This document shows, in pieces, positions 653 through 20,870 of a stretch of 54,620 nt of DNA (positions within the stretch are counted from its first letter, which is position 1; each line of letters starts with the position of its first letter). The position numbers and the translations under genes were made by a program. The DNA is from a virus (lineage: Duplodnaviria; Caudoviricetes): IMG/VR virus record IMGVR_UViG_3300004369_000597, positions 1-54,620 of that record; one strand, given 5' to 3'. Below the pieces are notes generated by a model. That model searched no databases. It was not told where the DNA came from and worked only from the letters and a program-made list of their open reading frames with translations.

Positions 653-2062
653 TTACTTTTTAAGGCTGTTTAACAACGATTTCAATTTAGTACTTTGTAC
701 GTCTGCGTCTACTCGTTTATTTATCGGCTCTACTTGTTCGTGGACTGCTTGATCGACTGCCCCAACTTGGCTAGTTGTCTTAAACTTATCCATAATTTGC
801 TGTGCTGAGGGCTGTGCATTTTGTGACACATTAGATGTGCCAGGGTCTGAAATTCTTAATGTTTCTATATCAAATGCTAGTTCTACTTTCTGTCCTACAC
901 CAGAACTGCTACGTGTTTTCATTAACTGAATTTGATATTGTCCGCGTTCTCTCATACTACGTGACGTAAAGATACCAAATACGTTATCTGCTGTGTTGAT
1001 TTTTGAAATACCACCTGAGATATGACTATGATCAAATTCGATTTCTTCTACTGCACTTCTGTTTAACTGTGAGGCTGTAACAAATATCAAATCAAACTCT
1101 TTTGCTAAGTTACGTAATTCTTCTGATACATACTTGTCTTTAACAAACAAGTCACTAGGACTTACTTTGGCACTTACTGGCATCAACAAGTCCAAATAGT
1201 CAACACACATAAAATCTATCTTCATGCCTGTTTGTATTTGCAATTCTTTAATATATGCTCTAAGATCGTTTACTGTACTTTGTGCTGGCATATACTTGAT
1301 TCTGAACTTGCCAGATGTTTTTTGTTTCATTTTAACTTTCATTTCAACGTTATCTAAGTCTTTAAACACTTCTTTTGCTTTAGTGTCAGTCAACATAGAA
1401 TCGATACGCATGGCTGATAGTTCTTCACTCAATTCAAGTGTAATGTACACTCCTGATAAGCCCTGTAACAACCAATTAACTGAAAGATTCTGCATGAACA
1501 AAGACTTACCTGAACCAGAACCACCTGCAAAAATTTGCAGTTCTCCTTTGTTGAAACCCCCATAAAGTTTTTGATCTAGTACGGGCCAGCCCGTAGAGTT
1601 TTGACCATTGCTTGTTTTAAGATGCATCAATCTAGCACGTGGATCAGCAAAGTAATCGATACCCATATCACGTTGTAATGAAATTTGAACCGCATCTTTA
1701 ATTAATTTTTCAACAGGATTATAGTCACCCTTTTCTAATAAGTCTGCTGACTTCATAATTGCACGTTCTAATTCTTGTCTACGTGTAAATGCTTCAAATT
1801 CAGATAAGAACCATTCGTAATGTTCATCTTGTAAATCATCCACTGGTTCAATTTCAACACTAGTTGTTGCTTTAATTTGTGTTGGGTCTGGAAGTAATTT
1901 ATATTTGCTAGAATGTTCCAGCATAAACTCTGCTACAGGTCTTAGTTTGCGATCAAAGTTTTCTGGATTAAAGATATTTGTGATTCGTACAAAAAGTTCT
2001 GCGTTTGTAACCATCATACGCAAGAATAATTCTTGCACATCAGCATTGAATTCTTTTAGCAA
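653..2062 (-). CDS. DnaB-family replicative DNA helicase (T4 gp41-like)
   Basis: Walker A GGSGSGKS, ITLE, VDYLDL, ASQLNR and KTR motifs; overlaps the primase gene. Confidence 0.95.
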   Translation of the reverse strand: MLKEFNADVQELFLRMMVTNAELFVRITNIFNPENFDRKLRPVAEFMLEHSSKYKLLPDPTQIKATTSVEIEPVDDLQDEHYEWFLSEFEAFTRRQELERAIMKSADLLEKGDYNPVEKLIKDAVQISLQRDMGIDYFADPRARLMHLKTSNGQNSTGWPVLDQKLYGGFNKGELQIFAGGSGSGKSLFMQNLSVNWLLQGLSGVYITLELSEELSAMRIDSMLTDTKAKEVFKDLDNVEMKVKMKQKTSGKFRIKYMPAQSTVNDLRAYIKELQIQTGMKIDFMCVDYLDLLMPVSAKVSPSDLFVKDKYVSEELRNLAKEFDLIFVTASQLNRSAVEEIEFDHSHISGGISKINTADNVFGIFTSRSMRERGQYQIQLMKTRSSSGVGQKVELAFDIETLRISDPGTSNVSQNAQPSAQQIMDKFKTTSQVGAVDQAVHEQVEPINKRVDADVQSTKLKSLLNSLKK

Positions 2063-3029
2063 TTTTTTTCCTCATCATTTCGATTTTAATTTTGTTGTTT
2101 GTTGCAGACTCTATAATACTTAGTAGAGTTGGCAATCTTCCATATTTAATTAGTGCATCGTTTGCATCTTTAACGCCAGTTCCCCAATTAGGTAAACTAA
2201 GTTCAAATCCCAATTCGATTGCTCTATCAATTATATCCAAGCCTGTCTTGTCCTGATCAGGAACAACAATTATACGCTTATCTAATTTTCTAATTATACT
2301 TGCTTGTTCGTCACTGATTGTATTATGACACAATGCTAATCCACTTAACGAGATAGCATCAAATATACCTTCAAATACTAAACAAATTTCCCATTCAGGT
2401 TTTTGCAAATCAGTACCAAACACATATCCTTTTTGTTGCTGATTAATATACTTAGGTTGCCTGTTATCAATATATCTGGACGTGTGACCCACTATCTTAT
2501 TTTCATATGTGTAGGGAATAATCAAACGTTGCGCCTCTCTCCCTTCAGCATCAGGTGTCACTAAAAACGGATATGCAGAATGACTAAGTCCTCTCTTTTT
2601 AAGATACGTTATAAATGGTTGATGTTTTTTATCGCCCACATAAATTAGATTGCCTTCAGGTCTAGGGCGTTCTTTAAACTTAACAACAGGGTCTTTTTTC
2701 TTTTTAGTTATAACTGAGTCTAGCAAATCTCTATGTTGTATTGACTGTAAGTTCCACTTATTAATTTGCTGATCGTCTACACCACACCAAGATAAAAAGT
2801 TACGTGTCTTTTTACTGATGCTTTTACCTAATGTAAATCCACATTTAAAGCCGCAGTTAAAACAATGATAAGACCAATTATCACCGTCGGTTCTTACACC
2901 TCCCCGTTGACGTTTGTCTGCATTGTGTCCATTATGATGACAACACGGTGCGTTGAATGAATACCATCCACTTTGTGTTAGTTTCTTTTTACCCGGTGCA
3001 ACCGTAAGTATATCAATCATACTTCGCAT
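2040..3029 (-). CDS. DNA primase (T4 gp61-like); true start probably ATG at 3020
   Basis: N-terminal Zn finger (PCCHH...HCFNCG), TOPRIM motifs EGIFDA and PDQD; adjacent to the helicase. Confidence 0.92.
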   Translation of the reverse strand: MRSMIDILTVAPGKKKLTQSGWYSFNAPCCHHNGHNADKRQRGGVRTDGDNWSYHCFNCGFKCGFTLGKSISKKTRNFLSWCGVDDQQINKWNLQSIQHRDLLDSVITKKKKDPVVKFKERPRPEGNLIYVGDKKHQPFITYLKKRGLSHSAYPFLVTPDAEGREAQRLIIPYTYENKIVGHTSRYIDNRQPKYINQQQKGYVFGTDLQKPEWEICLVFEGIFDAISLSGLALCHNTISDEQASIIRKLDKRIIVVPDQDKTGLDIIDRAIELGFELSLPNWGTGVKDANDALIKYGRLPTLLSIIESATNNKIKIEMMRKKIAKRIQC

Positions 3030-3056
3030 TATACATAAAAATTAAAGAAAATACAA
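3028..3056 (-). promoter_or_regulatory. Sigma70-like promoter TTGTAT-17-TATAAT, 7 nt before ATG 3020 (leaderless primase mRNA)
   Basis: Consensus -10, partial -35, 17-nt spacer. Confidence 0.55.
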
Positions 3057-3070
3057 CAGAAACGGTAAAC

Positions 3071-3862
3071 TTATCTTGCCAAAACGTTACCAATATTGCC
3101 CACATTAGATTCAAACTTTAGTTTGACAAACGGGTGATATCCTTCAAGGGTGTATCCAATTGTGCTAGTTTCAACAGACCCTGTGTTAGCATTACCATAC
3201 TGATATGATACAATATCATAGTATTCAGAGTCAACTAAAGTGGATCCCTGAATAGTCATGTTGCCTACGTAGTTTGAATAATGAGTTTGAATTGTTAAAA
3301 CTGGATTATTTTCTGTATTAATCACACTACTAAAAAACGTGACTGCTTCAGAGTTTGCATTTGCATTTGCATTAGGAAAGACTTGATCTGTAGGAATTGT
3401 AACTGCTTGGCTTGGTACGAATGAAGGTAGAATAGAGTTTACAATATTAAGATCGCCACGTGCTCCTGCTTTTGCATCTACGAATACTGGCAAATTTTGA
3501 TTGCCGCTTGGGTATTCTAAAGAGTACGAGCAAAACTGTGCAGGAATGTTTTCTATTTCTGCGGCAGTTGTATTGAGTTCAAAGATGCCGGTTGCTAGAT
3601 AGATAGGATCAAGTGCTTTTCTAAACAACACTGCGGTTCCATCTGAGTTTAAAATTCTAAACGATATTTGTCCAGTAAGACCGGTAAAGTCAACAGGCTT
3701 TTGTTCTTGGTTTAAGAATTGAAACTGTAGTTTGTTATCAACACCTTTGTTAAGTGTTAGTGGCTTTGAATAAACTGGCATATATTTCCTCGGACTTGTT
3801 CCATCAAGGACAACAACGATTTGTCTAATTGTATACGTGTAAACTGATGTAGTGTAAGACAC
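3071..3862 (-). CDS. Beta-rich hypothetical, probably virion-associated late protein (263 aa, GTG start)
   Basis: AGGAG RBS and TAAATA at 3886-3891 upstream; composition rich in Ser/Thr/Asn/Val. Confidence 0.7.
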   Translation of the reverse strand: MSYTTSVYTYTIRQIVVVLDGTSPRKYMPVYSKPLTLNKGVDNKLQFQFLNQEQKPVDFTGLTGQISFRILNSDGTAVLFRKALDPIYLATGIFELNTTAAEIENIPAQFCSYSLEYPSGNQNLPVFVDAKAGARGDLNIVNSILPSFVPSQAVTIPTDQVFPNANANANSEAVTFFSSVINTENNPVLTIQTHYSNYVGNMTIQGSTLVDSEYYDIVSYQYGNANTGSVETSTIGYTLEGYHPFVKLKFESNVGNIGNVLAR

Positions 3863-3947
3863 AAATCTTTAACTCCTAATAAGAGTATTTATCAGTTAGG
3901 TATATAATAATATTTTACCAATTTTTTTCCGATGTTAAATACAGATA

Positions 3948-4346
3948 ATGCCTAAGCAACAAGACAACTCGCCCATCGATTTCTTTAAAAAGTTAACCGA
4001 AACTCACCCCTTTATTTCGGTAGTCCAGTATGCCAGTCAGGACTTTGTAGGCATTGTCCAAAACCGTGATGATGTAGTCACTAGCATCTATGATTATGGT
4101 GCTATTATAGAAGAAAATTTAAAAATAAAGTTTTTAGAATTAGGCGATGTTTGGTGGTGGGAGTCTAATCGACAAATACCAATTAACCTTTTTTTAAAGG
4201 AAGAATGGACCGAATTCAAACCTTATCTAAGAACGTTCAATAACAAAAGTTTGACAATAGTACATGGTCCTATTGTCAGCATGTCTGATTTTCAAAAGAA
4301 AAGAGTAAAACGTAAATCTATTACTTTGGTGAAGCGATCTTTCTAA
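3948..4346 (+). CDS. Hypothetical phage protein (132 aa) with WWWES motif and basic tail
   Basis: One of two real-looking plus-strand genes; TAAATA at 3936-3941, 6 nt before ATG. Confidence 0.8.
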   Translation: MPKQQDNSPIDFFKKLTETHPFISVVQYASQDFVGIVQNRDDVVTSIYDYGAIIEENLKIKFLELGDVWWWESNRQIPINLFLKEEWTEFKPYLRTFNNKSLTIVHGPIVSMSDFQKKRVKRKSITLVKRSF

Positions 4347-4884
4347 GCAGTTTGTTTCGTTGACGTTGCTTTTTTGCTCTACGTTGTTTTGCCAATCGCA
4401 AACTTAAATCACTACCAACTCGTTGTTCAAAAGTAATTCCCAGCAAATGATCAAATTCGTGCAAGAACACTCTTGCTTTAATACCAGTAAGGTGCTGATC
4501 TTTGATCCACTCTCCGTTTAGTGTTTGATATGATACAACTACTTCAGGGTGACGTTTGATATGCAACCATAGATCAGGGAAACTTAAACAACCTTCTAAG
4601 TAAATTTCTTTTTCGCCTTGCAACTTTTCAACTACAGGATTGATACACACAACTAAGTCGGCATCTGTACCCATAATCAAAATACTTTTTTGTACTCCAA
4701 CTTGGTTTGCTGATAACCCTATACCCGTATGATTAGGGTTTAACATAACCTTGCCCATAGCAGTTACCAACTCAGTTGGATCACCGTCAAGTTTAAAATC
4801 CCAAGGTTCTGTGGGTTCTTGTAAGATAGGATTATTTTCAGATATAAGTTTAAGTTCTAATTTTTCTTCCATTATTTTTTGCAT
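4321..4884 (-). CDS. def: Peptide deformylase
   Basis: All three PDF motifs present: GIGLSANQ, EGCLS, HEFDH; start may be ATG 4872. Confidence 0.95.
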   Translation of the reverse strand: MQKIMEEKLELKLISENNPILQEPTEPWDFKLDGDPTELVTAMGKVMLNPNHTGIGLSANQVGVQKSILIMGTDADLVVCINPVVEKLQGEKEIYLEGCLSFPDLWLHIKRHPEVVVSYQTLNGEWIKDQHLTGIKARVFLHEFDHLLGITFEQRVGSDLSLRLAKQRRAKKQRQRNKLLRKIASPK

Positions 4885-5140
4885 CCTGATATGCTGAAAT
4901 TAATTCATCACCATCTAATTGTTCTCCAGAAAGTAAAACAATTTCACCTGATTTTAGTGTTCTTTCTATTCGTTGATCATTGTACATGATATCAAACACT
5001 TTGCCTTCTGGCTCTCTATCATCATACCAAAGTCTGGATCGATTAGAGTCAAATGAATGTATAAATTTTACACCATTTGCCCATGCTTCTGCTTCTAGTA
5101 ATAATTTTTGTCGTTCTATTCTTTCTTTATATTGTGTCAT
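4850..5140 (-). CDS. Hypothetical protein (96 aa)
   Basis: ORF overlapping both neighbours in an operon-like run. Confidence 0.7.
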   Translation of the reverse strand: MTQYKERIERQKLLLEAEAWANGVKFIHSFDSNRSRLWYDDREPEGKVFDIMYNDQRIERTLKSGEIVLLSGEQLDGDELISAYQDAKNNGRKIRT

Positions 5141-5720
5141 ACTTCAATGGGTCTTGCTCCTCTAGCAAATTCATATGCACAACAACTAACTGTGCATACG
5201 CAATTGCATGTGATTTTTTAAACGTGTATCCTGTGCTATTTTTATCCCACACAGTTTTACTTATTTCTTTAAACGTCTTGCCTATTAAATGTTTTTTACC
5301 AGGTCGTATGACACTTAAGAACATTGCTAAACGTGGAATAGAATTGACTGGTTCCGGAAAGTGACATAATGTGTCATACTGATTATTGATGTGAATTAAC
5401 TTTTCTACAAAATCTTTGTCTTTCAATCTGTCCCAGTTAGGCTCTTCCATTAACTGAATCAAATGTATTTCGTCTCTGACTTGATTATAAATGTTTACAT
5501 TAAGAACGTCTAACTTAAAGTAACCTCGTTCTTCTGCATGTTTATAATCCAACGAACACATTTTGTTTGCGGGATCATATGGAGCTTCTGTAATATAGAT
5601 ACCAGTAGGATGCTTTCTAATTGGATCAACCTCACGCATTGCCGCAGGGATATGATAGATGTGTTTAATAAGTTCTTCTCTGTTGCCACAATCAATATCA
5701 ATATCTGAATTTATTCTCAT
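5127..5720 (-). CDS. Miniature DNA polymerase III alpha (DnaE)-like protein, 197 aa
   Basis: Collinear DnaE motifs SDIDID, KHPTGIYI, GYFKLDVL, LSVIRPG, GYTFKKSHAIAYA; no PHP, HhH or OB domains. Confidence 0.85.
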   Translation of the reverse strand: MRINSDIDIDCGNREELIKHIYHIPAAMREVDPIRKHPTGIYITEAPYDPANKMCSLDYKHAEERGYFKLDVLNVNIYNQVRDEIHLIQLMEEPNWDRLKDKDFVEKLIHINNQYDTLCHFPEPVNSIPRLAMFLSVIRPGKKHLIGKTFKEISKTVWDKNSTGYTFKKSHAIAYAQLVVVHMNLLEEQDPLKYDTI

Positions 5721-6259
5721 TGTAAGCCTGCCACCATTAATTTCTTGTATGCTCTTTGCACAACTATTGCTTGATGTTCAGCATCTTCTACAGCCTTATG
5801 AGACGTCCTGTGAGCGCCGTCTTTTAGCGATACGTTGCACATGTCATAAATTGTACGTGTGTCTCTAATAGTGTAAAAAGGCCACGGAATACGCATGTCT
5901 AATTGCCTAAAGGCGTTTTCAGCCACAACAATATCAAAACCAGCACCATTACTCCAAACTGCTCTGCGGTTCCAACAGAATTTATAAAGTTTATCCATAG
6001 TATCTTTAAACGATATTCTATCTCTGTCGCCCATTGCTTCATCGATTGCTTCTTCACTTTGTTCTCCCCACCAGCGTAATGTGTCTGGATTAATTGTTCT
6101 GTTGTGTTGCTCTGTTTGATCTTCAATAGTAGGTCGCAGTTCCAAACGTTCTACTACCCCATCACCTTTGGGGTCGAAACGAACTGCACCGATTGTTAGG
6201 ATAACTGAGTCTGGATCCGTGCCCAACGTTTCCATATCAATCATTACGTCATTTGCCAT
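5717..6259 (-). CDS. DEDDh 3'-5' exonuclease (Rv2179c/RNase AS-like)
   Basis: MIDMET, WSNGAGFD, RDTRT and HKAVEDA motifs. Confidence 0.88.
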   Translation of the reverse strand: MANDVMIDMETLGTDPDSVILTIGAVRFDPKGDGVVERLELRPTIEDQTEQHNRTINPDTLRWWGEQSEEAIDEAMGDRDRISFKDTMDKLYKFCWNRRAVWSNGAGFDIVVAENAFRQLDMRIPWPFYTIRDTRTIYDMCNVSLKDGAHRTSHKAVEDAEHQAIVVQRAYKKLMVAGLQ

Positions 6260-8060
6260 AATTTTCTGTATCTAATAGTTTTAAGTTTTCTATTATATCG
6301 GATTTGACATAATTAATCAATAGTATTTCGTAATTATGGGTAACCTTTAAGGGGGCAAATGAGTGTAGTATCCTTGGATTGAATAAAACAGCAGATCCAA
6401 ATGGAACATGAATTTGAATGTGATCATTAATAAAATGACTGTCTACTAATCCGTCTGCTAAATCTGATAATGGCCAATCTTTCTCGTGGCTACTAGGTAC
6501 AAGACAAAATTCTGCACCTTTTTGATTAAGCGGCACAACAATACTTACACCCATAACATCTTGTTTATAATCTGATGCAAGTAAATTATTATATTCTGGT
6601 AATGTGTGGGGGAAAGCAATCTCTGTTTTCCATTCTGTGTTTTCATTTACTGTTATCATTTTTCTATTATAGAAAACCGAATTACGTAAATGTTGTTTAA
6701 CTTCTGCTTCGATTTCTGTATTGGTATATCCCATCTGATCAATGATTTCATATCCAATACTGTGACTTGTTAAATTCATTTTTGTTTTTAGTTGTTGCAA
6801 TTCTTCATATACATCAGGTATAAAATCTTTCATAGCACGTTTTCTAAACTTGTCTGAGTTATCAATAAAGTGCAAACAATGATCTATAAGTTGAGGATAG
6901 ACTTCTTGTTCTTCTTGTAGCCAAGTTTTAAGTAATCCAAACTGATCTTTCCACTTATCGTCTACTCCGTGAAAATAATCAATGTCTGTCATTTCACTTA
7001 ATATTTTTTCTTCTAGTTTTTGTAATTTTACTAGAGCCTTGTATCTTATTTTTTTTGATAAGACATTAGTTTTAAAGTGTGCAGGAGACCATACTCTATT
7101 AAGAAATACGCCATAGATATTATATCGATTACCATGTTCTTTGTATTTTTTAGTAAGTTCCCACCACCATTCTAATAAATCGTGTGAATGTAAAATGCTT
7201 AATAAACTTGCCGTGTGGCTTAGTGATACGGTGTACCTATCGGGATACAGTATAGTATACTCAAACATTTGCGTAACGTTTTCTTCTATCTTTTTCCACT
7301 TAAACGGATATCTGATATATTCATTTACTATGCCATATCCGTCAATAGAAACCGAAAGATGTACCTCTTTAAACTCTTGCCAAACGTCTGTCAGGTCTTG
7401 TGTTAAACCAGTTAAGTTAGTTACATAACTAATGCTTATATTTTTAGCCCGATCTAATTTAATTAATTCTTTTAAGAAACGAATGCCTTCTTCATGTATC
7501 GTTGGTTCCCCTCCCACAAACGCAATGCTTTCAACGTTGGGATATGATTGTATTAGTTCATTAACTTTGTCGTCTTCAATATAAATTTTAAGACCTTTTA
7601 AATTGTAGATATTATTTTGTAATCCACGCTTTGTATTTTTTGGTAAGTCTTTAGTTGATTGTTGATAAATGTAGTTCCATTCATCTTCCCATAATGTAGA
7701 AGCCGCCGGTCCACATGTCATGCACTTTGAATTGCATTTGTTACTGAATGTTAGGTCGAGGTATTTTACATTTGCTGGATCTACCGTTGTATCCATTGGG
7801 ATATCATTACCCAACCCTTGGTTCCAAATGGTACGCATAGAAGCGTAACCGTTTTCTTCTGATTCCTTACAGTTTACACAGCCTTTGGGCCATTTGTCAT
7901 TCTTAAGTAACTCTCTAACTTTAATTAAATGTGGATCATTGAGGTGACTTCCGTTGGTACTTTTTTCGTCATCAAACTTACCTTGAAAGTTACAACAGGG
8001 TTTATACCCTGTTTGATCAATTGATGCTGAACCAAATGCTAATGAACAATAGATTGCCAT
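6249..8060 (-). CDS. Radical SAM protein (N-terminal SPASM/twitch-like Cys cluster) fused to a C-terminal degenerate PhyH-like 2OG-Fe(II) domain
   Basis: CNSKCMTC (CxxxCxxC), GGEP, VTN, SID; N-terminal C...PCC...CxxC; C-terminal 176 aa align by eye with 8061..8774. Confidence 0.88.
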   Translation of the reverse strand: MAIYCSLAFGSASIDQTGYKPCCNFQGKFDDEKSTNGSHLNDPHLIKVRELLKNDKWPKGCVNCKESEENGYASMRTIWNQGLGNDIPMDTTVDPANVKYLDLTFSNKCNSKCMTCGPAASTLWEDEWNYIYQQSTKDLPKNTKRGLQNNIYNLKGLKIYIEDDKVNELIQSYPNVESIAFVGGEPTIHEEGIRFLKELIKLDRAKNISISYVTNLTGLTQDLTDVWQEFKEVHLSVSIDGYGIVNEYIRYPFKWKKIEENVTQMFEYTILYPDRYTVSLSHTASLLSILHSHDLLEWWWELTKKYKEHGNRYNIYGVFLNRVWSPAHFKTNVLSKKIRYKALVKLQKLEEKILSEMTDIDYFHGVDDKWKDQFGLLKTWLQEEQEVYPQLIDHCLHFIDNSDKFRKRAMKDFIPDVYEELQQLKTKMNLTSHSIGYEIIDQMGYTNTEIEAEVKQHLRNSVFYNRKMITVNENTEWKTEIAFPHTLPEYNNLLASDYKQDVMGVSIVVPLNQKGAEFCLVPSSHEKDWPLSDLADGLVDSHFINDHIQIHVPFGSAVLFNPRILHSFAPLKVTHNYEILLINYVKSDIIENLKLLDTENYGK

Positions 8061-8774
8061 TTACTTACCGTTACTCGACCAAACATTGTCTGTGCTTCTA
8101 ATGTCTTTAGCAATGTCTGGTCTTAAATAATTCATTAGTAAGATTGATCGTTTTTTAGATAGTTTTAAAGGCATTGTAGAATGCATCAATCTAGTATTAT
8201 AAAACAACATTGAACCAACTGGCATGTCTAGTTGAATTGCATTCTCCATAAACTCATTATCATAAAAACCTTCGTAACATTCTTGTATTGGCCAATCTTT
8301 TTTGTGACTGTCAAGTAACAAACCTGTTGCTCCTGTATCTTTATCCAAATCTTCTAATGGTATAATAACTTGGATACCCATTAATTCGTTGTTACCTTCT
8401 GCAACTAGATTATTGTATTTTTTAAATCGGTGTGGTGTATCTACGTGGGGACTTACCCAACGAGACGGTCCATTGATAGTAACAATATCACTTGCATAGA
8501 ATTCTGCGTCAGGTAAATATTGTTGAAGAATCGGTGCAATAATTTTATCTATTTCTTTTACTTCGTGCCAATCATCTGTGAGTTGTGACCACCATACGGC
8601 AATGCCAAATAACTTTTTACATGCATCGCCTTCAGCATATTCTTTTTTGTGTGTAGATGCTCTTACAGGATACAGCATATCTTTTTTACTGTTGATAGAA
8701 TTGATAAAATGCATTGGTACAATATCAGTAACTTGATCGTAACCTCTGCCGTTGTGAGTTAGCGTGTCATTCAT
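8061..8774 (-). CDS. Phytanoyl-CoA dioxygenase (PhyH)-family 2OG-Fe(II) oxygenase
   Basis: HVD...GAT...SH...G.MLFYN.RLMH...RS motifs. Confidence 0.85.
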   Translation of the reverse strand: MNDTLTHNGRGYDQVTDIVPMHFINSINSKKDMLYPVRASTHKKEYAEGDACKKLFGIAVWWSQLTDDWHEVKEIDKIIAPILQQYLPDAEFYASDIVTINGPSRWVSPHVDTPHRFKKYNNLVAEGNNELMGIQVIIPLEDLDKDTGATGLLLDSHKKDWPIQECYEGFYDNEFMENAIQLDMPVGSMLFYNTRLMHSTMPLKLSKKRSILLMNYLRPDIAKDIRSTDNVWSSNGK

Positions 8775-8775
8775 T

Positions 8776-9180
8776 TTAATTCCATCTTAGTTCAGTCCAA
8801 AGTTTTTCTTCGTCACTGACCAAATATATTCTAAATTCTTTTTGCCGTTCATCGTTAGCCCAACACCAATGCTGATTTAAATCTGCCTCAATGCCTAATG
8901 GTGTATGATAATGCATTTCCATATAGTCTTTGTGATCACATGATGGACCCCACGTGTCCCAACACCATTGTCTAAGAACAGTAAAGTCTACTATTCTATT
9001 TATCCTAGTATCTACTCTAGTTTGAGCCGAATACATTGAATTATTAAATCGTATATAGTCGGGTCGATTTGGGTTACGTAATTTTAAATACCATTTAAAT
9101 AAATGGTTACCGGTATGTCTACCATCTAATTTGGCAAACTGTATACCGGACAATATTTTATGATCTTTTACATTGATCAT
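8776..9180 (-). CDS. Hypothetical Trp-rich protein (134 aa)
   Basis: Clean ORF abutting neighbours; WCWDTWG and C-terminal LRW motif. Confidence 0.75.
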   Translation of the reverse strand: MINVKDHKILSGIQFAKLDGRHTGNHLFKWYLKLRNPNRPDYIRFNNSMYSAQTRVDTRINRIVDFTVLRQWCWDTWGPSCDHKDYMEMHYHTPLGIEADLNQHWCWANDERQKEFRIYLVSDEEKLWTELRWN

Positions 9181-9905
9181 TAATACCCTGCCTGCTGTAG
9201 TAACTCCTTAACTTCAGGAATAATATTAGAATCTCTTTTAAACTTGATTGCCCACTTTTCAGGATCAATATATTCTAAGATCATTTTTTGTTGCAGTTCT
9301 TCTAACTGACCTAAAAATTCTAATCCAGACTCACTGTGATAAAGCATCCAAGGTGAGATTCTGCCTGTCGTTACTTCATAACAAATACGATTGCGAGGAC
9401 CATAACGTAAACAATCTTTGTTTTGTATTTTTTCATCCTGTGCAATCTTAATTGTAGTTTCAATACTACGTGCAATTGCATCTAATGGGTCTTCATCTTT
9501 CAAGTGTTCGATAACAAACTTTGTGTAGTTTGTATCGCTAGTCCACTTGTCAATCTTAATTTGATTTTTAAGCAACCAATCTGCATAACGATTAACATTA
9601 ATAACATTGACGTTTACACAATAATGACCAAACTTAACAAAGGCTAGATAATAAGAACTTTTGATAAAGTCCAAATACGTCTTTTGTTTTTTGCTGGCTG
9701 TGTTCTTAAGATAAAAGTTTAACCATGCTTGAAACCCAATACGATTACCTTTTAAATCCTTGTCACCCCATCTGCGTTTGTTTTCACATAGATGTTTATC
9801 CATCGTAGACTCACGCACAAATCCACGTCCACAAAACTCACAGCCGAACTCAGTTACCAAGTTCTTTTTCGTACTGTTCGATTGTTTCATCACTAACAAG
9901 GTCAC
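9180..9905 (-). CDS. Hypothetical protein with an N-terminal Zn finger (CEFC...HLC)
   Basis: C2HC-type motif; sits next to the clamp-loader-like gene. Confidence 0.75.
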   Translation of the reverse strand: MTLLVMKQSNSTKKNLVTEFGCEFCGRGFVRESTMDKHLCENKRRWGDKDLKGNRIGFQAWLNFYLKNTASKKQKTYLDFIKSSYYLAFVKFGHYCVNVNVINVNRYADWLLKNQIKIDKWTSDTNYTKFVIEHLKDEDPLDAIARSIETTIKIAQDEKIQNKDCLRYGPRNRICYEVTTGRISPWMLYHSESGLEFLGQLEELQQKMILEYIDPEKWAIKFKRDSNIIPEVKELLQQAGY

Positions 9906-10443
9906 TTAATAACTCCAAGTCTTCTATTTTTAAATCAGGAAATTTTTCAGCAAGATACATTTTACGTTTATGTTGTTCGCAAAAGGCATCTGCTATATCT
10001 TTTAAATCACTATCAGAAACTTTGGGATATACTTTTTTATAGTACTCTTTAATTTCTTTTGGTGTTGCTTTGTCTTTTAACTTAGACACACTTTGTCTAA
10101 TGTTTGGGATCCATTGATGATATTGTTTGCCGATACCAGGACTAGCCGCACATAACATCAACCATTGCAGTTTAGGATGCTTCATTACGTTCTCGTTAAA
10201 CAAATAACGATTGGCATGATAGTCTACGCTTTGCAGATAGTATTGAGATACAGCAGACTTACCTTTTACTGCACTGATCCAGTGTAGCATCATAAAAGGA
10301 ACAAACTTCTTTTGTTGTTCTGGCGTTAATCTGTCGTAGTATCCATAATCTTTTTGATCGACTGCCGCAATTGCTTCAAACAAGTTAAAGTCTTGCCCTT
10401 GTAGTTTTTCATCACTTGGTGTCTTTGTTTTTCTTTTCGCCAT
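9850..10443 (-). CDS. Clamp loader small subunit-like protein (T4 gp62-like)
   Basis: FVPFMMLHW...N...HPKLQ...KQYHQW...IKEYY pattern recalls the gp62 family; replication-module context. Confidence 0.6.
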   Translation of the reverse strand: MAKRKTKTPSDEKLQGQDFNLFEAIAAVDQKDYGYYDRLTPEQQKKFVPFMMLHWISAVKGKSAVSQYYLQSVDYHANRYLFNENVMKHPKLQWLMLCAASPGIGKQYHQWIPNIRQSVSKLKDKATPKEIKEYYKKVYPKVSDSDLKDIADAFCEQHKRKMYLAEKFPDLKIEDLELLSDLVSDETIEQYEKELGN

Positions 10444-10582
10444 CTTTATATTCTTGTGGAGTAGTCATTATAACTTCTATAGCATCGTGGCTAGGCTTAT
10501 TCTTACCGAATATCTTTTCCCAGTTATCTTTATATGCTTTTTGATTTGCACCTTTACGAGGCGCAGAGCCTTTCCCTGCCAT
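10412..10582 (-). CDS. Small basic protein (56 aa), MAGKGSAPRKGANQKAYKDNWEKIFGK...
   Basis: Below the ORF-track cutoff; TAATG-coupled to the upstream gene and fills the gap exactly. Confidence 0.75.
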   Translation of the reverse strand: MAGKGSAPRKGANQKAYKDNWEKIFGKNKPSHDAIEVIMTTPQEYKDGEKKNKDTK

Positions 10583-11082
10583 TAGAACACCTGTGCATAG
10601 TCAACGATTTCGCAGTTTCTACTAATCTCTTTTACAAAGTAAATACATCTAGGTTGAGGACCATCATCGATTGGTACACAGAGAAACTGCCCGTTACGCA
10701 ATCGAGGAGCATACCAAGTTACATCTGAATAGATGTCAACAATTTCAATCGGAGCAAATGCCGGAGAGAACGATGACAGTGGATTAAACATAAACACTGA
10801 AAAGCCTCTGTCATTTAAACTAGAAAGAGGTAGCGTTTCTAAATCACCGCCGTCTTCATCACCGATTAATACTTGCCAATCAACTGGCATTTTAAGAGTC
10901 TTGTCACTAACCTTTAATACAACAGCCGGGGCATTAAAAGATTCTAAAAAGATTAGCGGGATATAATAATAATCGACAAAACTAGGATTAGAATTATCTA
11001 AAATAGCAAATCGAAGGTCATCGATTTCTTCTGGTAACGTTTCTAAATTATAAAATTCGTTTTCTAATGTTAATATTCTCAT
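10582..11082 (-). CDS. Hypothetical phage protein (166 aa)
   Basis: Clean ORF with its own promoter. Confidence 0.8.
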   Translation of the reverse strand: MRILTLENEFYNLETLPEEIDDLRFAILDNSNPSFVDYYYIPLIFLESFNAPAVVLKVSDKTLKMPVDWQVLIGDEDGGDLETLPLSSLNDRGFSVFMFNPLSSFSPAFAPIEIVDIYSDVTWYAPRLRNGQFLCVPIDDGPQPRCIYFVKEISRNCEIVDYAQVF

Positions 11083-11088
11083 AGTGTT

Positions 11089-11117
11089 ATTGTATCTTCT
11101 CCAGTTAGATAATTCAA
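11089..11117 (-). promoter_or_regulatory. Sigma70-like promoter TTGAAT-17-TACAAT, 6 nt before ATG 11082
   Basis: Near-consensus hexamers with 17-nt spacer; no RBS. Confidence 0.6.
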
Positions 11118-11131
11118 GTTATTCGGTAACC

Positions 11132-12586
11132 TTAGTAGTTTAATTTTTCTATCACAAAGGGATAGTTGGCTTCTCTATAAAAAGCCTTGCGTTGCGTCAA
11201 GTGTCTCTTTGCAAAACGACAAGAACTAGTGATATCCCAAATTTGAACAAAGTCTTTATCTTCTGCTTTGCGAATTCCACGACCAATAGACTGGATGACA
11301 CGAACAAAAGACTTACCAGGCTCAATAAGTATAAGGTTAAAAATACGAGGAATATTAATACCCACACTAGCAACACCATAGGTAGCAACAAGTACTTTTC
11401 CATCAGCCGTTGCAACTTCATCATATTCTTCTTTGCGTTCATTTACTTTGGTGCTCCCTGATATAAAGACAGCATCTTTTATGCGTTTAGTAATTTCATT
11501 ACCTGCATTGATTCTGTCTACTAGGACAAGAGTGTTACCAGAGTCTTTTATTGTATCAATCAAATCGCAAATTTTGTCTAAGCGATTTTCATCTGTCAAT
11601 AAATGTTTCAACTCTGCTTGGTAGTTTTGAAACTCTTGTCCATCTTGCAACTGCACAACATTTACGTGACAGTTAGCAAGTACTCCTTTGTCTTGTAGTT
11701 CGCTGGCTGATAACTTATTAGTTACTCCACCTAAACTTACTAACAAAGCAATACGTTCATATTCTGCTTTAGGAATCGTTCCAGTTAGTCCCCATCTAAT
11801 GGGTACACGTGACATTACTCCTGTTAATAGTTGCTTGAGTGCATCTGCTTTTGCCATATGAACTTCATCAACCATGACACAAACAACATCTTCAATAAAT
11901 TCGTGTATGGTGCAATCAGCACTACCTGCTTTAGTATTCTTCAATAAAATATTTAACGATTGCCAAGTACAAATTGTATGTTGCTTATTATACTCTTTGC
12001 GATCACCAAAATAAACACCAACATCTAGTCCTAAATTTTTGTAGTCTACTTCTGTTTGTGTGACTAGTGACTTGTTTGGTACAATAACAATTGATCTACC
12101 GTATGATTCTATGCTTGCTGACAATGCGGCAGTCATAATAGTCTTGCCAGCGCCGGTTGCTACTTCTTGTATAGACTGCGGGTTCTCTAAAAATCCGTTA
12201 ATAACATCAACTTGATAGTCTCTTAACTTGATAGGTTGCCCTTCGTGTGTATGTCCTTTTGGCCATTTAACGTGAGCAAATGTATCTGTGTCTACTTTAT
12301 TAAACACAAAGGTCGTTGAGTAGTCTCTGAGGTCTTCTAGTTCGATATCATAGTGTAGTTCTTCTAAGATAGGAATGATATCTTCTAATAGATTGATGTA
12401 GGTAGAACCTGCTAATGAAAAATAACTGACCTTTCCGTTCCATCTACCAAGTTTAACACTTGGCATATACCTTGCACCAGGAATTTCATATTCAAATTTT
12501 TTCATGCAGGCTCTACGTGCATCAAGTTCAAGCCCTTCGATTTTTAAATTTACCTCATCTTTAATGATGAGTCTAGCATTTCGCAT
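11132..12586 (-). CDS. uvsW: UvsW-like SF2 DNA helicase
   Basis: LRDYQ, ATGAGKT, DEVH, GLTGT and QSIGRGIR motifs; N-terminus typical of UvsW. Confidence 0.93.
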   Translation of the reverse strand: MRNARLIIKDEVNLKIEGLELDARRACMKKFEYEIPGARYMPSVKLGRWNGKVSYFSLAGSTYINLLEDIIPILEELHYDIELEDLRDYSTTFVFNKVDTDTFAHVKWPKGHTHEGQPIKLRDYQVDVINGFLENPQSIQEVATGAGKTIMTAALSASIESYGRSIVIVPNKSLVTQTEVDYKNLGLDVGVYFGDRKEYNKQHTICTWQSLNILLKNTKAGSADCTIHEFIEDVVCVMVDEVHMAKADALKQLLTGVMSRVPIRWGLTGTIPKAEYERIALLVSLGGVTNKLSASELQDKGVLANCHVNVVQLQDGQEFQNYQAELKHLLTDENRLDKICDLIDTIKDSGNTLVLVDRINAGNEITKRIKDAVFISGSTKVNERKEEYDEVATADGKVLVATYGVASVGINIPRIFNLILIEPGKSFVRVIQSIGRGIRKAEDKDFVQIWDITSSCRFAKRHLTQRKAFYREANYPFVIEKLNY

Positions 12587-12589
12587 AAA

Positions 12590-14185
12590 TTATTCTGGCC
12601 TATATTGTAGTGTCAAAAATATTTGTCTACCACCAGCTCCATAGCCAGGGATAATTTCAATTTCTTTATCTAGTATATCTCTAAACGTAACAGAAAGCAA
12701 ATAGTTGTTGCCCACTGACTTTTGCACACTTAAGTCAAATGAATTAACATTGTCTAATTCTTCAGTATCGTAAGGACTTTGCTTACGATCAAACATACCC
12801 TGATATGTAAGTTTTGCGGTGTAATCTTTTATAATATATGTACCCGATATAACAAACATGTACTTTGCAACACGTGGTTGTTCGGTGTCTGTCCAACCAA
12901 GATGTGTGTGAATCCACGCATTAGGGCTTAGTGTAATCATGTCTGAGTAACGAAAACCCTGCGTGTTATACTTACCTATGTTTACGTATTGATTCTCGTT
13001 AAAATCGTAATCTATGCCTTCGCTAAAACGATAATGAAAGTAAGACAGTTTGTTCCAACCTATTTCGTACCCAATTGATTCTTCGGGTTCTAGTTTAGGA
13101 TTAGGATTAGTCCAAGCGTCACCTCTAAGTTGGTATAGATTTGGATTGCGAAATGACGTACCCAAATTAACGAACAAGCCGTTATTCTCATACCCCACTC
13201 TATATACAAATGCATCTTGTGTTACACGGGAACCAACTTCAAGTCCAAACAATGTTTTTAGTACACCATATATGGCGTAGTTGTCTTCTGTGTCACTATC
13301 GTATTCTTCTTGTTCTGCGGTTACACCAATGATCGCATCACCCATAGTTAAAACAAGATTTGTTCTGTAGTCTGCATACCATCTGTTGGCTTCACTAACC
13401 CAAAAGTTATCAGAGTCAGCAAAATAGTCAGCATCGTTCCAAGTATGGCCCACAGTCCAATTTTCGCTACGTACACTTACTGCCCCGCGTTGACCTTCTT
13501 GCAAGCAATCGTTAGTGTAATCGTAACTGCTGTTCCAGCATTGATCAAAGTCATATTCATAATCGTTAATCATTACGTTTGCAGTGTACGAACCAAAATC
13601 AATGTGTGCCCTTGCAGTTACATTTTTGTAATCGTCTTCTTCATTGTTATCTGTGCGTACACTATCATTAGTTGCAGAAAGGTACGTAAAGTTAAATAAA
13701 TTCTCTAACGAATGGCTAACAAATTGATGATCAGAACCTGCTCTAACTGTAGAACCGGGTTGGATATTGTCATTAATAAAAATAGTACCTGCCAAACTGC
13801 CTGATCCATAAAGGACCGAATTAGGTCCATGTACAATTTTTGCAGTTTCATTTCCTGTTGCTAAGTCGTGCCCAAAATCATACCAACCTGCGCCTGCATC
13901 GTTAGCAGGAACACCATTACGAAATACAGTAGTGTGAATAGGCTGAGTGCCTCGTTCACTGTATCCTGCAAATCCTCCAAACCCACCTGCTACTGTAGTT
14001 GCTGGCATTAAACTTTCTATCAGTGTAACGTCAGTTACTGGATCACTTGTTACGGTGTGTTCTGTTGAACCTGTAACAACAATTGTTTCGATTTCTTCTG
14101 CATGTACTTCATTAAGTAGAAATGCATAAAAAATCATTACGATTGCAAAACCTAATATTTCGATTTTGCCATTTTTAATACTCAT
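12590..14185 (-). CDS. TonB-dependent outer-membrane receptor (BtuB-like)
   Basis: Signal peptide (VHA-EE), TonB box ETIVVTG, plug motif GPNSVLYGSGSLAGTIFI, FRNPNLYQL...NPKLEPE, amphipathic beta-strands. Confidence 0.9.
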   Translation of the reverse strand: MSIKNGKIEILGFAIVMIFYAFLLNEVHAEEIETIVVTGSTEHTVTSDPVTDVTLIESLMPATTVAGGFGGFAGYSERGTQPIHTTVFRNGVPANDAGAGWYDFGHDLATGNETAKIVHGPNSVLYGSGSLAGTIFINDNIQPGSTVRAGSDHQFVSHSLENLFNFTYLSATNDSVRTDNNEEDDYKNVTARAHIDFGSYTANVMINDYEYDFDQCWNSSYDYTNDCLQEGQRGAVSVRSENWTVGHTWNDADYFADSDNFWVSEANRWYADYRTNLVLTMGDAIIGVTAEQEEYDSDTEDNYAIYGVLKTLFGLEVGSRVTQDAFVYRVGYENNGLFVNLGTSFRNPNLYQLRGDAWTNPNPKLEPEESIGYEIGWNKLSYFHYRFSEGIDYDFNENQYVNIGKYNTQGFRYSDMITLSPNAWIHTHLGWTDTEQPRVAKYMFVISGTYIIKDYTAKLTYQGMFDRKQSPYDTEELDNVNSFDLSVQKSVGNNYLLSVTFRDILDKEIEIIPGYGAGGRQIFLTLQYRPE

Positions 14186-19551: not shown

Positions 19552-19722
19552 TTACAATTGGTTAAATCTATGTTCGGTAATGCCGGGTAAAGCGGCAATT
19601 TGTTTTTCAACAACGCCCTTTACCCTGACATCAGATTTAGATGAAATTAGTTCTGTTTCGTAATGACTGATAAAATCAGGAATTACTGAAAGATCATGTG
19701 TGATGCGTGTGTACCAATTCAT
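19552..19722 (-). pseudogene. Truncated, diverged second copy of the uvsY 5' end (56 codons)
   Basis: MNWYTRITHDLSVIPDFISHYETELISSKSDVRVKGVVEKQIAALPGITEHRFNQL* versus MNWYTRITHNLAVIPDFIAHYENELTSAKNDVRVYGIVEKQISALPGVTEHRFNQLQE... at 20870..21328. Confidence 0.9.
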
Positions 19723-20870
19723 AAATTATTCAAATTCAAGTACTTACGTATGATCTGATCAGCGAACGGCCAAAGTTCTGCAAATGTGCTGGGATGGTCT
19801 TCATCTAGCAATATGACTTCTTTGGTAAAATCTTTCATAACACGAATATTGTGGTACTCTAACCGATTACTAATTTCCTTTTTTAATGCTTCTAATGTTA
19901 TTGCTGTTTTTTGATTAATATAATCTTTATATTTGGTTTGGACTATATCTATTTGTTCTATTGCCTTTTCTTTTATTTCTTTTGGATAGTTCATTAAGTC
20001 AAGGTGGGGAGGATGATCTAAGGTAGATATAAAAGAAGTATTATTGTTTGGATTAGGATCAATACTATACAACCAATCAAACACATCTACTAATGTAAAT
20101 GCACTCATAAGTGTGTAAGTAAAATGTACGCCAATCGGAGATGAAATAGATTCCTTTAATTTTTTGTAATTGGATTCAGTTAAAGACCAAGTAGCGTTGC
20201 GTCTAACATATTCAAAATGATCTCCGATGTTTTCAAAACTAACAAGCCAAGCAACTCTGTGGTCTAGTTCAACTAACTTTTTATAAACAGGTAAATCTTC
20301 AATATTTTTGACAGACAAATTAGTAACAATACCTACTCTAGTTTGATCGTCTACTAATTCTAGCAAATCAATATTTTCTCGTAATAGTAAAGGTTCACCA
20401 CCTAACATTTGAATATCATGTAATCGGGTAGTGTTGTCTTTAATATGCTGTAAAACTTCGTCTTGCCATTGAGTTTCAGAAACTTTAATATCTATACCTT
20501 TCCAAGATGCGTATGCACTACTCCATTCAGGATTGCAATAATTACATCTTAACTGACAAGTATTGTGCCATCTTATGTCTACTGATTTGGGTACAAACTT
20601 ATCTTCTTGTAGTTCATCATCAATTTCGTCATACAAATCTTTAAGGCTTTTGCCAGTGCGTTGATACTGGTCATGACAACTGGTGCAGTAATCAGAATAA
20701 CCTTTAGTAAGCATGTCCTCTCTAAGTTTTGCTAAAGGACCTGCTTTTAATAATTCTTGTAATGAGTTTTTATTAAGATTGCCAAGTGAGTTGCCACCAC
20801 AGCATACTCTTAAGTCACCGTCTGGATTTACGAATAAGCCTTCCCAAGGCGCTCGGCATTTAAATTCCAT
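19719..20870 (-). CDS. Radical SAM protein with N-terminal SPASM/twitch-like domain
   Basis: CQLRCNYC, GGEP, VTN; C.APW...VCC...CxxC; start moved to ATG 20870 (TAATG coupling to uvsY). Confidence 0.88.
   Translation of the reverse strand: MEFKCRAPWEGLFVNPDGDLRVCCGGNSLGNLNKNSLQELLKAGPLAKLREDMLTKGYSDYCTSCHDQYQRTGKSLKDLYDEIDDELQEDKFVPKSVDIRWHNTCQLRCNYCNPEWSSAYASWKGIDIKVSETQWQDEVLQHIKDNTTRLHDIQMLGGEPLLLRENIDLLELVDDQTRVGIVTNLSVKNIEDLPVYKKLVELDHRVAWLVSFENIGDHFEYVRRNATWSLTESNYKKLKESISSPIGVHFTYTLMSAFTLVDVFDWLYSIDPNPNNNTSFISTLDHPPHLDLMNYPKEIKEKAIEQIDIVQTKYKDYINQKTAITLEALKKEISNRLEYHNIRVMKDFTKEVILLDEDHPSTFAELWPFADQIIRKYLNLNNL

Follow-up and report, generated by a model that had tools for sequence, protein, structure and literature searches.

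A probable C-terminal subunit of a two-piece minimal Pol III alpha, encoded beside a DEDDh exonuclease gene in a jumbo phage fragment

Overview

A 197-amino-acid (197-aa) open reading frame (ORF) in a jumbo phage fragment is a member of the split minimal Pol III alpha family that was already published in 2021. The best overall explanation, and one that we consider very probable, is that it encodes the C-terminal subunit (the C-half) of the two-piece minimal Pol III alpha of group 2.2 jumbo phages. A separate N-terminal subunit (the N-half), known from relatives and expected in this phage by analogy with them, would supply a palm strand and the helix carrying GRGSS, and the two halves would assemble into one active site. 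The assembled enzyme would be devoid of the PHP, thumb, (HhH)2, and OB domains. Its putative role is that of an auxiliary nucleotidyltransferase, most likely a DNA polymerase, in a replisome module beside a family B polymerase. Without a thumb, processive template-directed synthesis by the split enzyme is uncertain. In an aquatic clade, a gene for a DexA/Rv2179c-like exonuclease appears to have been inserted directly upstream, where it would be co-expressed with the C-half, and its product may be an editing or end-processing partner.

Iyer et al. 2021 (Viruses 13:63, PMC7824862) described a split minimal Pol III alpha in group 2.2 jumbo phages, which also have a family B polymerase. The copy described here has the same family, length, motifs, and neighborhood as that published system. 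To it, the aquatic clade represented here adds an overlapping DEDDh exonuclease gene directly upstream, and no link between an exonuclease and the split Pol III alpha was found in the main text of the 2021 paper. The features are collected in Table 1; "the window" refers to the whole 54.6-kb stretch of DNA analyzed.

Table 1. Features around the C-half gene in the window, in descending order of position
Feature	Positions	Strand	Remarks
Conserved upstream block	9180..12586	-	UvsW-like helicase and three proteins with no assigned function
UvsW-like helicase	11132-12586	-	conserved upstream block
Protein, no assigned function	10582-11082	-	phrog_11279; conserved upstream block
Protein, no assigned function	9850-10443	-	phrog_11758; conserved upstream block
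Protein, no assigned function	9180-9905	-	phrog_11058; conserved upstream block
Variable insert between upstream block and exonuclease	6249..9180	-	includes a 134-aa ORF
PhyH-like dioxygenase	8061-8774	-	variable insert
Radical SAM protein	6249-8060	-	variable insert
Stand-alone DEDDh 3'-5' exonuclease, Rv2179c-like / DexA-like	5717..6259	-	180 aa; PF16473, phrog_255
ATGA stop/start overlap, exonuclease gene to C-half gene	5717..5720	-	plus strand 'tcat'
Probable C-terminal subunit of split minimal Pol III alpha	5127..5720	-	197 aa; phrog_11778
Conserved downstream block	653..4346	-	
ORF in downstream block	3948-4346	+	132 aa
ORF in downstream block	3071-3862	-	263 aa
DnaG-type primase	2040-3029	-	downstream block
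DnaB-like helicase	653-2062	-	downstream block

The C-half resembles Pol III alpha

The C-half translation contains SDIDID at residues 5-10, KHPTGIYI at 36-43, GYFKLDVL at 66-73, VIRPG at 137-141, and GYTFKKSHAIAYA at 164-176. These five strings, along with the ATGA coupling of the 197-aa ORF to the exonuclease ORF, had been quoted in an earlier note on this DNA and are all present as described. The DxD residues are D6, D8, and D10, the KxD residues are K69 and D71, and the RPG and FKKSH motifs occupy residues 139-141 and 167-171. Only 5 residues precede the DxD strand, and 21 remain after the FKKSHAIAYA helix motif. The phrog_11778 profile, labeled "DNA polymerase," matches the protein end to end (3.9e-53; residues 4-189 against profile positions 6-194 of 197), while no Pfam or NCBIfam model matches it, PF07733 and the NCBIfam DnaE models staying below their cut-offs. 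The closest cultured homologues found by tblastn belong to PA5oct-like, Atu_ph07, RaK2/121Q-like, XacN1, and SCTP-2 phages, at 30-46% identity.

How firm is the connection to Pol III alpha? A PDB search with an 87-member family profile returned nine distinct sequences at E values of 10 or less, all nine of them Pol III alpha, with E. coli Pol III alpha giving the best E value (2.3e-5). In the profile alignment to the E. coli protein, GYfKiD corresponds to GLVKFD (K553/D555 in alignment numbering), liRP to LFRPG at 637-641, and FKkSHA to FNKSHS at 756-761. An AlphaFold model of the C-half alone has a pLDDT of 95.3 and a pTM of 0.88. The earlier note had called for structure prediction and superposition on Pol III alpha, and the outcome agrees with its reading: the top 15 VIA-align rows and the top 17 Foldseek matches of the model are all C-family polymerases. 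VIA-align Z scores for the C-family rows run from 9.5 to 5.9, and the next row, which is unrelated, has a Z of 3.2. E. coli Pol III alpha (2hnh) aligns with a Z of 8.2 and an rmsd of 4.7 over 189 residues, model residues 1-197 being matched to chain residues 397-813. The DxD motif is tied to Pol III alpha by the VIA structural alignment and by a PF07733 match across DFDID of a naturally fused homologue, P0171 (described below).

The resemblance of the C-half to Pol III alpha exceeds chance and, judged from sequence profiles and a predicted model, the homology is real. Of the "five DnaE motifs" previously claimed, GYFKLDVL, RPG, and FKKSH align with Pol III alpha in sequence and DxD does so in structure; KHPTGIYI was tied to DnaE by no sequence alignment, its H37 and G40 being at least 90% conserved within the C-half family only. 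In the Pol-beta-like palm, the metal-binding half comes from the C-half (D6, D8, and D71, with K69), which also has a shortened fingers element (RPG and FKKSH).

The rest of the palm is encoded separately in relatives

What completes the palm? The GRGSS triphosphate-binding motif and the palm strand before it are found in a separate N-half gene of about 170 aa, in which GRGSS is invariant, and the earlier idea that all catalytic motifs are contained in 197 aa does not survive this result. The N-half of a relative matches PF07733 at 3.7e-10 (40.3 bits, against a cut-off of 23.9) and lies far below every NCBIfam DnaE cut-off. Stand-alone N-halves with PF07733 number 5657 proteins; among the 120 listed, lengths are 148-184 aa, mostly 168-175. 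An AlphaFold model of a relative's N-half, built from a 20-row alignment, has a pLDDT of 71, with the GRGS region under 50, and Foldseek with that model found nothing below an E value of 1.7. Because this model is uninformative, the homology of the N-half rests on sequence profiles.

On Taq Pol III alpha, N-half residues 94-167 match 381-454 and the C-half model matches from 459 onward, which places the break after the GS helix and before the DxD strand. A natural fusion, P0171 (375 aa), has an N part with GVGRGSS joined to a C-half, and PF07733 runs unbroken over the junction (residues 97-207 against profile positions 12-121, 4.8e-16). P0171 is one sequence on one 2.4-kb contig, a singleton cluster with no relatives found in viral_contigs. 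No longer or fused relatives of the C-half were found among 432 candidates, which is weak evidence, and when the N part of P0171 was run as a single phmmer query over the window and related loci, no match was significant. A MAFFT alignment for P0171 with both halves as rows was discarded, the N-halves having fallen on C-half columns.

Where, then, is the N-half of this phage? No gene for it was found in the window (best six-frame HMM match, E value of 2.9), which is a 16%-complete fragment with 5.1 kb downstream of the C-half gene. Among five larger related contigs, two have an N-half gene; it lies downstream of the C-half, by 38.8 kb in one and 46.5 kb in the other, and a few genes before the clamp loader. 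The other three have no N-half match; two of them, possibly all three, end short of the expected distance. Each of five complete cultured relatives has exactly one N-half and one C-half, at a distance that ranges in cultured phages from 15 to 182 kb and is unusual for obligate subunits. Searches by tblastn matched 96 phage records for the C-half and 92 for the N-half, with the same jumbo-phage groups among the rows listed for both.

Several domains of full-length DnaE are missing altogether. Loss of PHP and (HhH)2, as the earlier note proposed, is borne out by the lack of a Pfam match to either on the C-half and by searches of the five complete cultured relatives, in which PHP (PF02811) was found in 0/5 (controls positive in 14/14) and HHH_6 (PF14579) in 0/5 (controls positive in 11/14). 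Given these two results, the arrangement is not a conventional split of full-length DnaE. The same note had reckoned with missing domains being encoded elsewhere in the genome; this is so for the GRGS part of the palm, which has its own gene, and not in the sense of a full-length polymerase conventionally split. The thumb insertion is absent as well, the 197 residues of the C-half spanning E. coli 397-813 with 189 aligned. D10 and K69 are 58 residues apart, against about 148 at the matching E. coli positions, which we take to be D405 and, from the profile alignment, K553.

Conservation and genomic setting

A search restricted to lengths of 108-345 aa yielded 7607 homologues of the C-half, measuring 187-206 aa among the 120 listed; the family forms 355 clusters at 50% identity. 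Across 87 sequences sharing 28-81% identity, no variation is seen at D6, D8, K69, D71, or P140, and conservation of D10 is at least 90%. The median dN/dS over 162 pairs is 0.061, and no frameshifts or stop codons were seen in 82 loci matching the C-half. Relatives of equal length, an invariant acidic triad, and this low dN/dS uphold the earlier suggestion of selected miniaturization rather than decay.

The source of the window is a jumbo phage fragment (16% complete), distantly related to T4 and not a classic T4-like phage. Its gene order matches that of Ettore, Atu_ph07, Turkey5, and related contigs; wherever a locus is long enough, UvsW is followed by the three genes of no assigned function, the C-half, primase, and DnaB. 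The presence of the insert between the upstream block and the exonuclease gene differs among related loci. A protein-atlas look-up of the phrog_11058 neighbor returned only viral clusters without names. Family B polymerase (PF00136) had no match in the window; a 905-aa PolB ORF was found on one of the five related contigs (G002).

The upstream exonuclease

The product of the gene directly upstream of the C-half matches PF16473 at 1.5e-34 (119.6 bits, against a cut-off of 27) and the phrog_255 exonuclease profile at 2.5e-42; the NCBIfam epsilon model gives it 17 bits, against a cut-off of 236. All 18 sequences compared share D8, E10, D109, H154, and D159, and the median dN/dS is 0.104. A tblastn search matched 860 phage records, including T4-like entries named "dexA: exonuclease A," at 21-25% identity. 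With the window exonuclease as a protein query, no match was obtained in five cultured jumbo genomes; with the Pfam model, the nearest PF16473 gene in two cultured phages lies about 39-43 kb from the C-half.

How general is the linkage? It was counted in 74 places, namely the window and 73 related loci, each with at least 600 nucleotides (nt) upstream. In 57 of the 74 the start of the C-half gene is overlapped by the exonuclease gene, 54 times by the 4-nt ATGA; in 8 more the exonuclease gene lies 83-408 nt upstream. The linkage is missing in 9/74, among which are three cultured jumbo phages and relatives with no more than 54% identity. The 73 loci were retrieved with peptides from the window's own C-half protein. 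They all belong to one clade, and most of the count can therefore be put down to one insertion. The exonuclease stays adjacent to the C-half while genes further upstream vary. Of the 49 neighboring ORF pairs on the minus strand of the window, 13 overlap, 3 of these by 4 nt; with overlaps so common, the ATGA is weak evidence by itself. Conservation of the exonuclease linkage is seen in one uncultured aquatic clade only.

Metatranscriptomes contain some matching material. Five runs had small shares (0.06-0.13) of positions 4300-6700; short contigs lay on the exonuclease gene in 4/4 runs and on the C-half in 2/4, and one 197-nt contig bridges the junction of the two genes. Because DNA can be present in such libraries and a contig is no proof of a transcript, these data were not counted as expression or co-transcription, and stretches that lack coverage carry no meaning.

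Relation to known polymerases and exonucleases

Like DnaE and PolC, the phage enzyme has a Pol-beta-like palm, DxD and a third Asp after a Lys, RPG, and the (F)xKSH fingers motif. It differs from them in that its palm is divided between two proteins, in its length of about 365 residues versus more than 1,000 in a single chain, and in doing without PHP, thumb, (HhH)2/beta-binding, OB, and tau-binding parts. Another C-family polymerase made from two distant genes is cyanobacterial DnaE, whose pieces carry split intein halves and are spliced to full-length DnaE. The phage protein is split at a different site. Its N-half ends in ...EEFLK, and the alignment of the C-half with Pol III alpha begins at the very first residues, leaving no room for an intein.

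The exonuclease shares PF16473 and DEDDh with T4 DexA and Mycobacterium Rv2179c and differs from them in its place directly upstream of a polymerase subunit gene. As in the E. coli Pol III core, a C-family active site is encoded beside a stand-alone DEDDh exonuclease; unlike E. coli epsilon, the phage exonuclease belongs to another DEDDh subfamily, and the PHP domain of alpha, on which bacterial epsilon docks, is missing.

Alternative explanations

Could the C-half be a functionless, decaying remnant of a captured bacterial dnaE? Its N-half counterpart was termed "truncated" in passages of earlier genome papers (CBB_328, 172 aa versus about 1120 aa), but length and motifs are kept over the 355 clusters, dN/dS is low, and gene order around the C-half is fixed even in very distant phages. 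The chance of a remnant is virtually nil, these conservation data having already refuted it. A self-sufficient mini-enzyme, one that extends primers, makes signaling nucleotides, or acts as a template-independent transferase, would be in keeping with the three acidic residues and K69 being invariant and all in the C-half, with a model that is compact and confident without a partner, and with an N-half gene that is tens of kilobases distant in relatives and not found in the window. It is nonetheless very improbable, considering that the C-half lacks GRGSS and the strand before it in the Pol-beta-like fold, both of which are invariant in the separate N-half, that the C-half begins 5 residues before the DxD strand, that one N-half accompanies the C-half in 5/5 complete genomes, and that the natural fusion P0171 is collinear with DnaE. 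Pol-beta-like folds support many chemistries. The two-piece enzyme might thus be active without being a template-directed DNA polymerase, acting instead as a terminal transferase, a ribonucleotide polymerase (or in primer maturation), or a DNA-modification or nucleotide-signal synthase. We regard this as unlikely, even with the thumb missing and the D10-K69 stretch shortened, with no clamp-binding, (HhH)2, or OB domains, and with the phage group having its own family B replicase: the fingers motifs retained, RPG and FKKSH, are those common to real Pol III alpha, and the C-half gene has helicase, primase, and DnaB genes around it, while the N-half gene is a neighbor of the clamp loader. The main text of Iyer et al. 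2021 (PMC7824862), moreover, reads the C-half as Mg- and template-binding.

Might the exonuclease bind the C-half (with the N-half) physically and act as its proofreader, so that together they make up a small counterpart of the alpha-epsilon core? The overlap or close proximity of the genes in most of the places counted speaks for it, as do the persistence of the exonuclease beside the C-half as further-upstream genes come and go and the purifying selection on both genes. Such a complex is still doubtful. The linkage is missing in 9 places, three cultured jumbo phages among them; the count comes from one clade, where one insertion could explain most of it; the nearest PF16473 gene is far off in two cultured phages; and overlapping genes are common in the window. 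The exonuclease family also includes T4-like DexA, and T4 DexA is a non-replicative DNA exonuclease, while bacterial epsilon docks on a domain that is absent here. When the exonuclease was modeled in complex with the two halves, the prediction scored 0.02 (mark, 0.32); it was run without controls and counts neither for nor against binding. It is rather improbable that, in the aquatic clade, the exonuclease was recruited as a dedicated third subunit of a PHP-less "mini core" that polymerizes and edits. If this were true, the alpha-epsilon partnership would have been reinvented independently, with a docking mode necessarily unlike the bacterial one.

Implications

No relative of the bacterial replicase is known to be smaller than the minimal two-piece Pol III alpha, and Iyer et al. 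2021 (PMC7824862) propose it as a model for the ancestral form of the enzyme. No biochemical test of it was found in the literature searched, which makes any well-defined copy a candidate for reconstitution. Thousands of C-half and N-half sequences show that the family abounds in uncultured aquatic jumbo phages, and in one clade the exonuclease gene beside the catalytic half offers a concrete and testable hypothesis as to a partner.

A conserved relative of Pol III alpha

The window is a complete IMG/VR record of 54,620 bases. Its CheckV completeness estimate of 16% implies, by simple arithmetic, that the phage genome it comes from measures roughly 340 kb. The five DnaE strings quoted in the earlier note are all present in the translation of C-half, the C-terminal subunit of a split minimal Pol III alpha (SDIDID at residues 5-10, KHPTGIYI at 36-43, GYFKLDVL at 66-73, VIRPG at 137-141, and GYTFKKSHAIAYA at 164-176), and the stop of the upstream DEDDh exonuclease gene overlaps the C-half start in an ATGA. 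That sequence observation is confirmed.

Features of the window discussed in the text
Feature	Position	Strand	Remarks
C-half ORF	5127..5720	minus	197 aa
Exonuclease ORF	5717..6259	minus	180 aa
phrog_11279, phrog_11758, phrog_11058	9180-11082	minus	fixed places near C-half
132-aa ORF	3948-4346	plus	fixed place near C-half
263-aa ORF	3071-3862	minus	fixed place near C-half
Peptide deformylase	4321-4884	minus	PF01327, 6.3e-32; two genes downstream of C-half
603-aa protein	within 6249-8774	minus	radical SAM domain, residues 104-268
Second radical SAM gene	19719-20933		
531-aa ORF	12590-14185	minus	TonB-dependent-receptor Plug domain (PF07715, 1.4e-7), unusual in a phage protein
Largest ORF	46687-52668	minus	1993 aa

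As a single sequence, C-half had no match in Pfam, NCBIfam, or PDB sequence searches. PHROG 11778 ("DNA polymerase," a 197-position profile) matches it end to end (3.9e-53), and three long DnaE-type PHROGs weakly match residues ~149-194. The nine distinct PDB sequences matched by an 87-member family profile at E<=10 are all Pol III alpha, including those of E. coli (2.3e-5), Thermus aquaticus (Taq; 1.1e-4), and M. tuberculosis DnaE1 (2e-4). The same profile aligns GYfKiD with E. coli GLVKFD (K553/D555 in the alignment's own numbering), liRP with LFRPG (637-641), and FKkSHA with FNKSHS (756-761); the DxD of E. coli alpha is presumably D401/D403. The AlphaFold2 model, built with the 87-sequence alignment as input, is confident (pLDDT 95.3, pTM 0.88). 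When it was compared with the PDB by Foldseek, C-family polymerases filled the top 17 rows (TM by query 0.38-0.51; E 2.5e-3 to 0.39). The same was true of the top 15 rows from VIA-align, among them PolC 3f2b (Z 9.5), Taq 3e0d (Z 9.2, chain 459-868), and E. coli 2hnh (Z 8.2, rmsd 4.7, 189 residues aligned, chain 397-813); the next row is unrelated (Z 3.2). From the span on 2hnh, the 197 residues stretch across ~417 residues of E. coli alpha, compared with which C-half lacks the thumb and ~100 fingers residues. The resemblance to Pol III alpha is real.

Could so short a protein be the product of a decaying gene? A word-indexed search found 7607 homologues in a 108-345-aa band (187-206 aa among the 120 matches listed), and an exhaustive search gave 355 clusters at 50% identity (E<=1e-3). 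Across 87 sequences, 28-81% identical to the window protein, D6, D8, K69, D71, and P140 are invariant, and D10, A26, H37, G40, P47, W96, A132, R139, K142, K168, H171, and A176 are at least 90% conserved. Median dN/dS (Nei-Gojobori) is 0.061 for C-half (52 distinct related genes, 162 pairs, dS 0.05-1.5) and 0.104 for the exonuclease (362 pairs). Homologue numbers, invariant residues, and dN/dS together exclude decay. C-half is under selection, and with its catalytic residues invariant, the earlier reading of a selected miniaturisation holds.

A probable two-piece enzyme

Where is the rest of the enzyme? A clue comes from P0171, a 375-aa protein in which C-half (residues 190-371) is preceded by an N-terminal part with VIGVGRGSSSASL, the sole such case among 150 representatives listed. 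Pfam PF07733 (DNA_pol3_alpha) matches its residues 97-207 (profile 12-121, 4.8e-16), running continuously over the junction and into DFDID. By tblastn, 92 phage records match the N part and 96 match C-half, with identical jumbo-phage groups among the matches listed. In those phages the N part stands as a gene of its own, N-half (169-182 aa), often annotated "DNA polymerase III alpha," with the clamp loader a few genes further downstream. Each of the five complete cultured genomes checked has a single N-half and a single C-half, separated by 15 to 182 kb. Stand-alone N-halves form a family of 5657 proteins (PF07733 precomputed), with lengths of 148-184 aa, mostly 168-175, among the 120 listed; G136-R137-G138-S139-S140 is invariant.

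The N-half of a related contig, L088, matches PF07733 at residues 88-167 (profile 15-94, 3.7e-10). Its residues 94-167 correspond to Taq alpha 381-454 and the C-half model starts at Taq 459, so the break comes after the GS-motif helix and before the DxD strand, within the Pol-beta-like core. Because the break falls there, with C-half starting 5 residues before the DxD strand, the pair would be obligate. The "mini-DnaE with all catalytic motifs" proposed earlier survives as a relative of Pol III alpha that is miniaturised and under selection, but not as a complete one: C-half is very probably one of two subunits, the GRGSS motif residing in N-half. Downstream of N-half in L087 (1942-3429) and L088 (419-1489) are an ORF of ~125 aa, perhaps GroES/gp31-like, and a protein that is small and basic; in L087 an RFC-like clamp loader follows.

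Searching the window's six-frame translation with an HMM of four N-halves gave no match (best E 2.9). N-half is carried by two of five larger related contigs, where by derived distances it follows C-half at 38.8 kb (G002) and 46.5 kb (G003) on the downstream side. In the window, 48.9 kb lie upstream of C-half and just 5.1 kb downstream; the absence of N-half is therefore expected. The other three contigs, lacking a match, have about 33.5, 16, and 35 kb left downstream by arithmetic, and two of them, possibly also the third, stop before the 38.8-46.5 kb distance. We infer an N-half partner in this phage.

A conventional split polymerase, with the missing domains encoded elsewhere, had been one of the alternatives stated. 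The GRGSS part is indeed in a separate gene, but PHP (PF02811) and (HhH)2 (PF14579) were found in none of the five complete cultured genomes with both halves, by searches positive in 14/14 and 11/14 control genomes, respectively, and this alternative is rejected. The text of Iyer et al. 2021 (PMC7824862) likewise describes the other Pol III domains as absent.

Linkage to the exonuclease

The exonuclease is Rv2179c-like (PF16473, 1.5e-34) with invariant DEDDh residues; the family occurs in 860 phage records, some of them T4-like "dexA: exonuclease A" entries with 21-25% identity. C-half is matched in 82 fetched loci and the window, and 74 places have at least 600 nt upstream. In 54 of these the exonuclease gene and the C-half start overlap by 4 nt, and in 3 more the overlap is 1, 11, or 17 nt; a gap of 83-408 nt separates the two in 8, and the exonuclease gene is missing upstream in the other 9 (L055, the three cultured phages, and five relatives whose identity is <=54%). 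Genes beyond the exonuclease (134-aa ORF, PhyH-like, radical SAM) differ among loci while the exonuclease keeps adjoining C-half. These loci, fetched with peptides of the window's own C-half, represent one clade with only 52 distinct C-half sequences. The linkage is real and clade-specific. Is the exonuclease also a physical or functional partner of the candidate polymerase? Overlapping gene pairs are frequent in the window (13/49), and in two cultured phages the sole PF16473 gene lies tens of kb from C-half. A partnership seems unlikely.

The 83-408-nt spacer replaces ATGA in L049 (6643-7032), L067 (9593-10000), and six similar loci; three inspected contain no ORF of at least 60 aa, only short Cys-rich open frames.

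Neighbourhood and proposed role

One gene order recurs in the window, in three cultured jumbo phages, and in related contigs of sufficient length: UvsW-like helicase, phrog_11279, phrog_11758, phrog_11058, (variable insert), C-half, (96-aa ORF, peptide deformylase), 132-aa ORF on the other strand, 263-aa ORF, DnaG-type primase, and DnaB-like helicase. Other window genes include those for UvsX, UvsY, a gp32-like SSB, and a large terminase. A family B polymerase ORF (905 aa) is present on G002, with none in the window or the other four related fragments.

Five proteins of unknown function hold fixed places round C-half in every related phage examined, including cultured jumbo phages, and may be uncharacterised replisome parts or mini-polymerase partners; a phrog_11758 homologue is labelled "sliding-clamp-loader small subunit" in one GenBank record. 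The genes for the 603-aa radical SAM protein and the PhyH-like protein belong to the variable insert, which separates the exonuclease from the conserved block, and the C-terminal part of the 603-aa protein resembles the adjoining 237-aa PhyH-like dioxygenase. Peptide deformylase occurs in many related loci, not all.

The split minimal Pol III alpha was already known before this analysis, and C-half is not new. N-half had appeared before in genome papers as a "truncated" DnaE, namely CBB_328 (172 aa; PMC5259590) and Atu_ph07 gp316 (PMC6102473). In the text of Iyer et al. 2021 (PMC7824862), the split enzyme accompanies a family B polymerase, with one-strand synthesis or repair as the suggested role; a word search of the main text found no exonuclease link. 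Literature searches (jumbo phage, C-family, RaK2) turned up no biochemical study of a phage split or minimal Pol III alpha.

How might the two proteins work? Joined together, N-half and C-half would form a single Pol-beta-like active site whose fingers element is short, and template-directed DNA synthesis by the pair is somewhat favored. Most likely, the assembly would act as an auxiliary polymerase within the replisome module of the phage, itself distantly T4-like.
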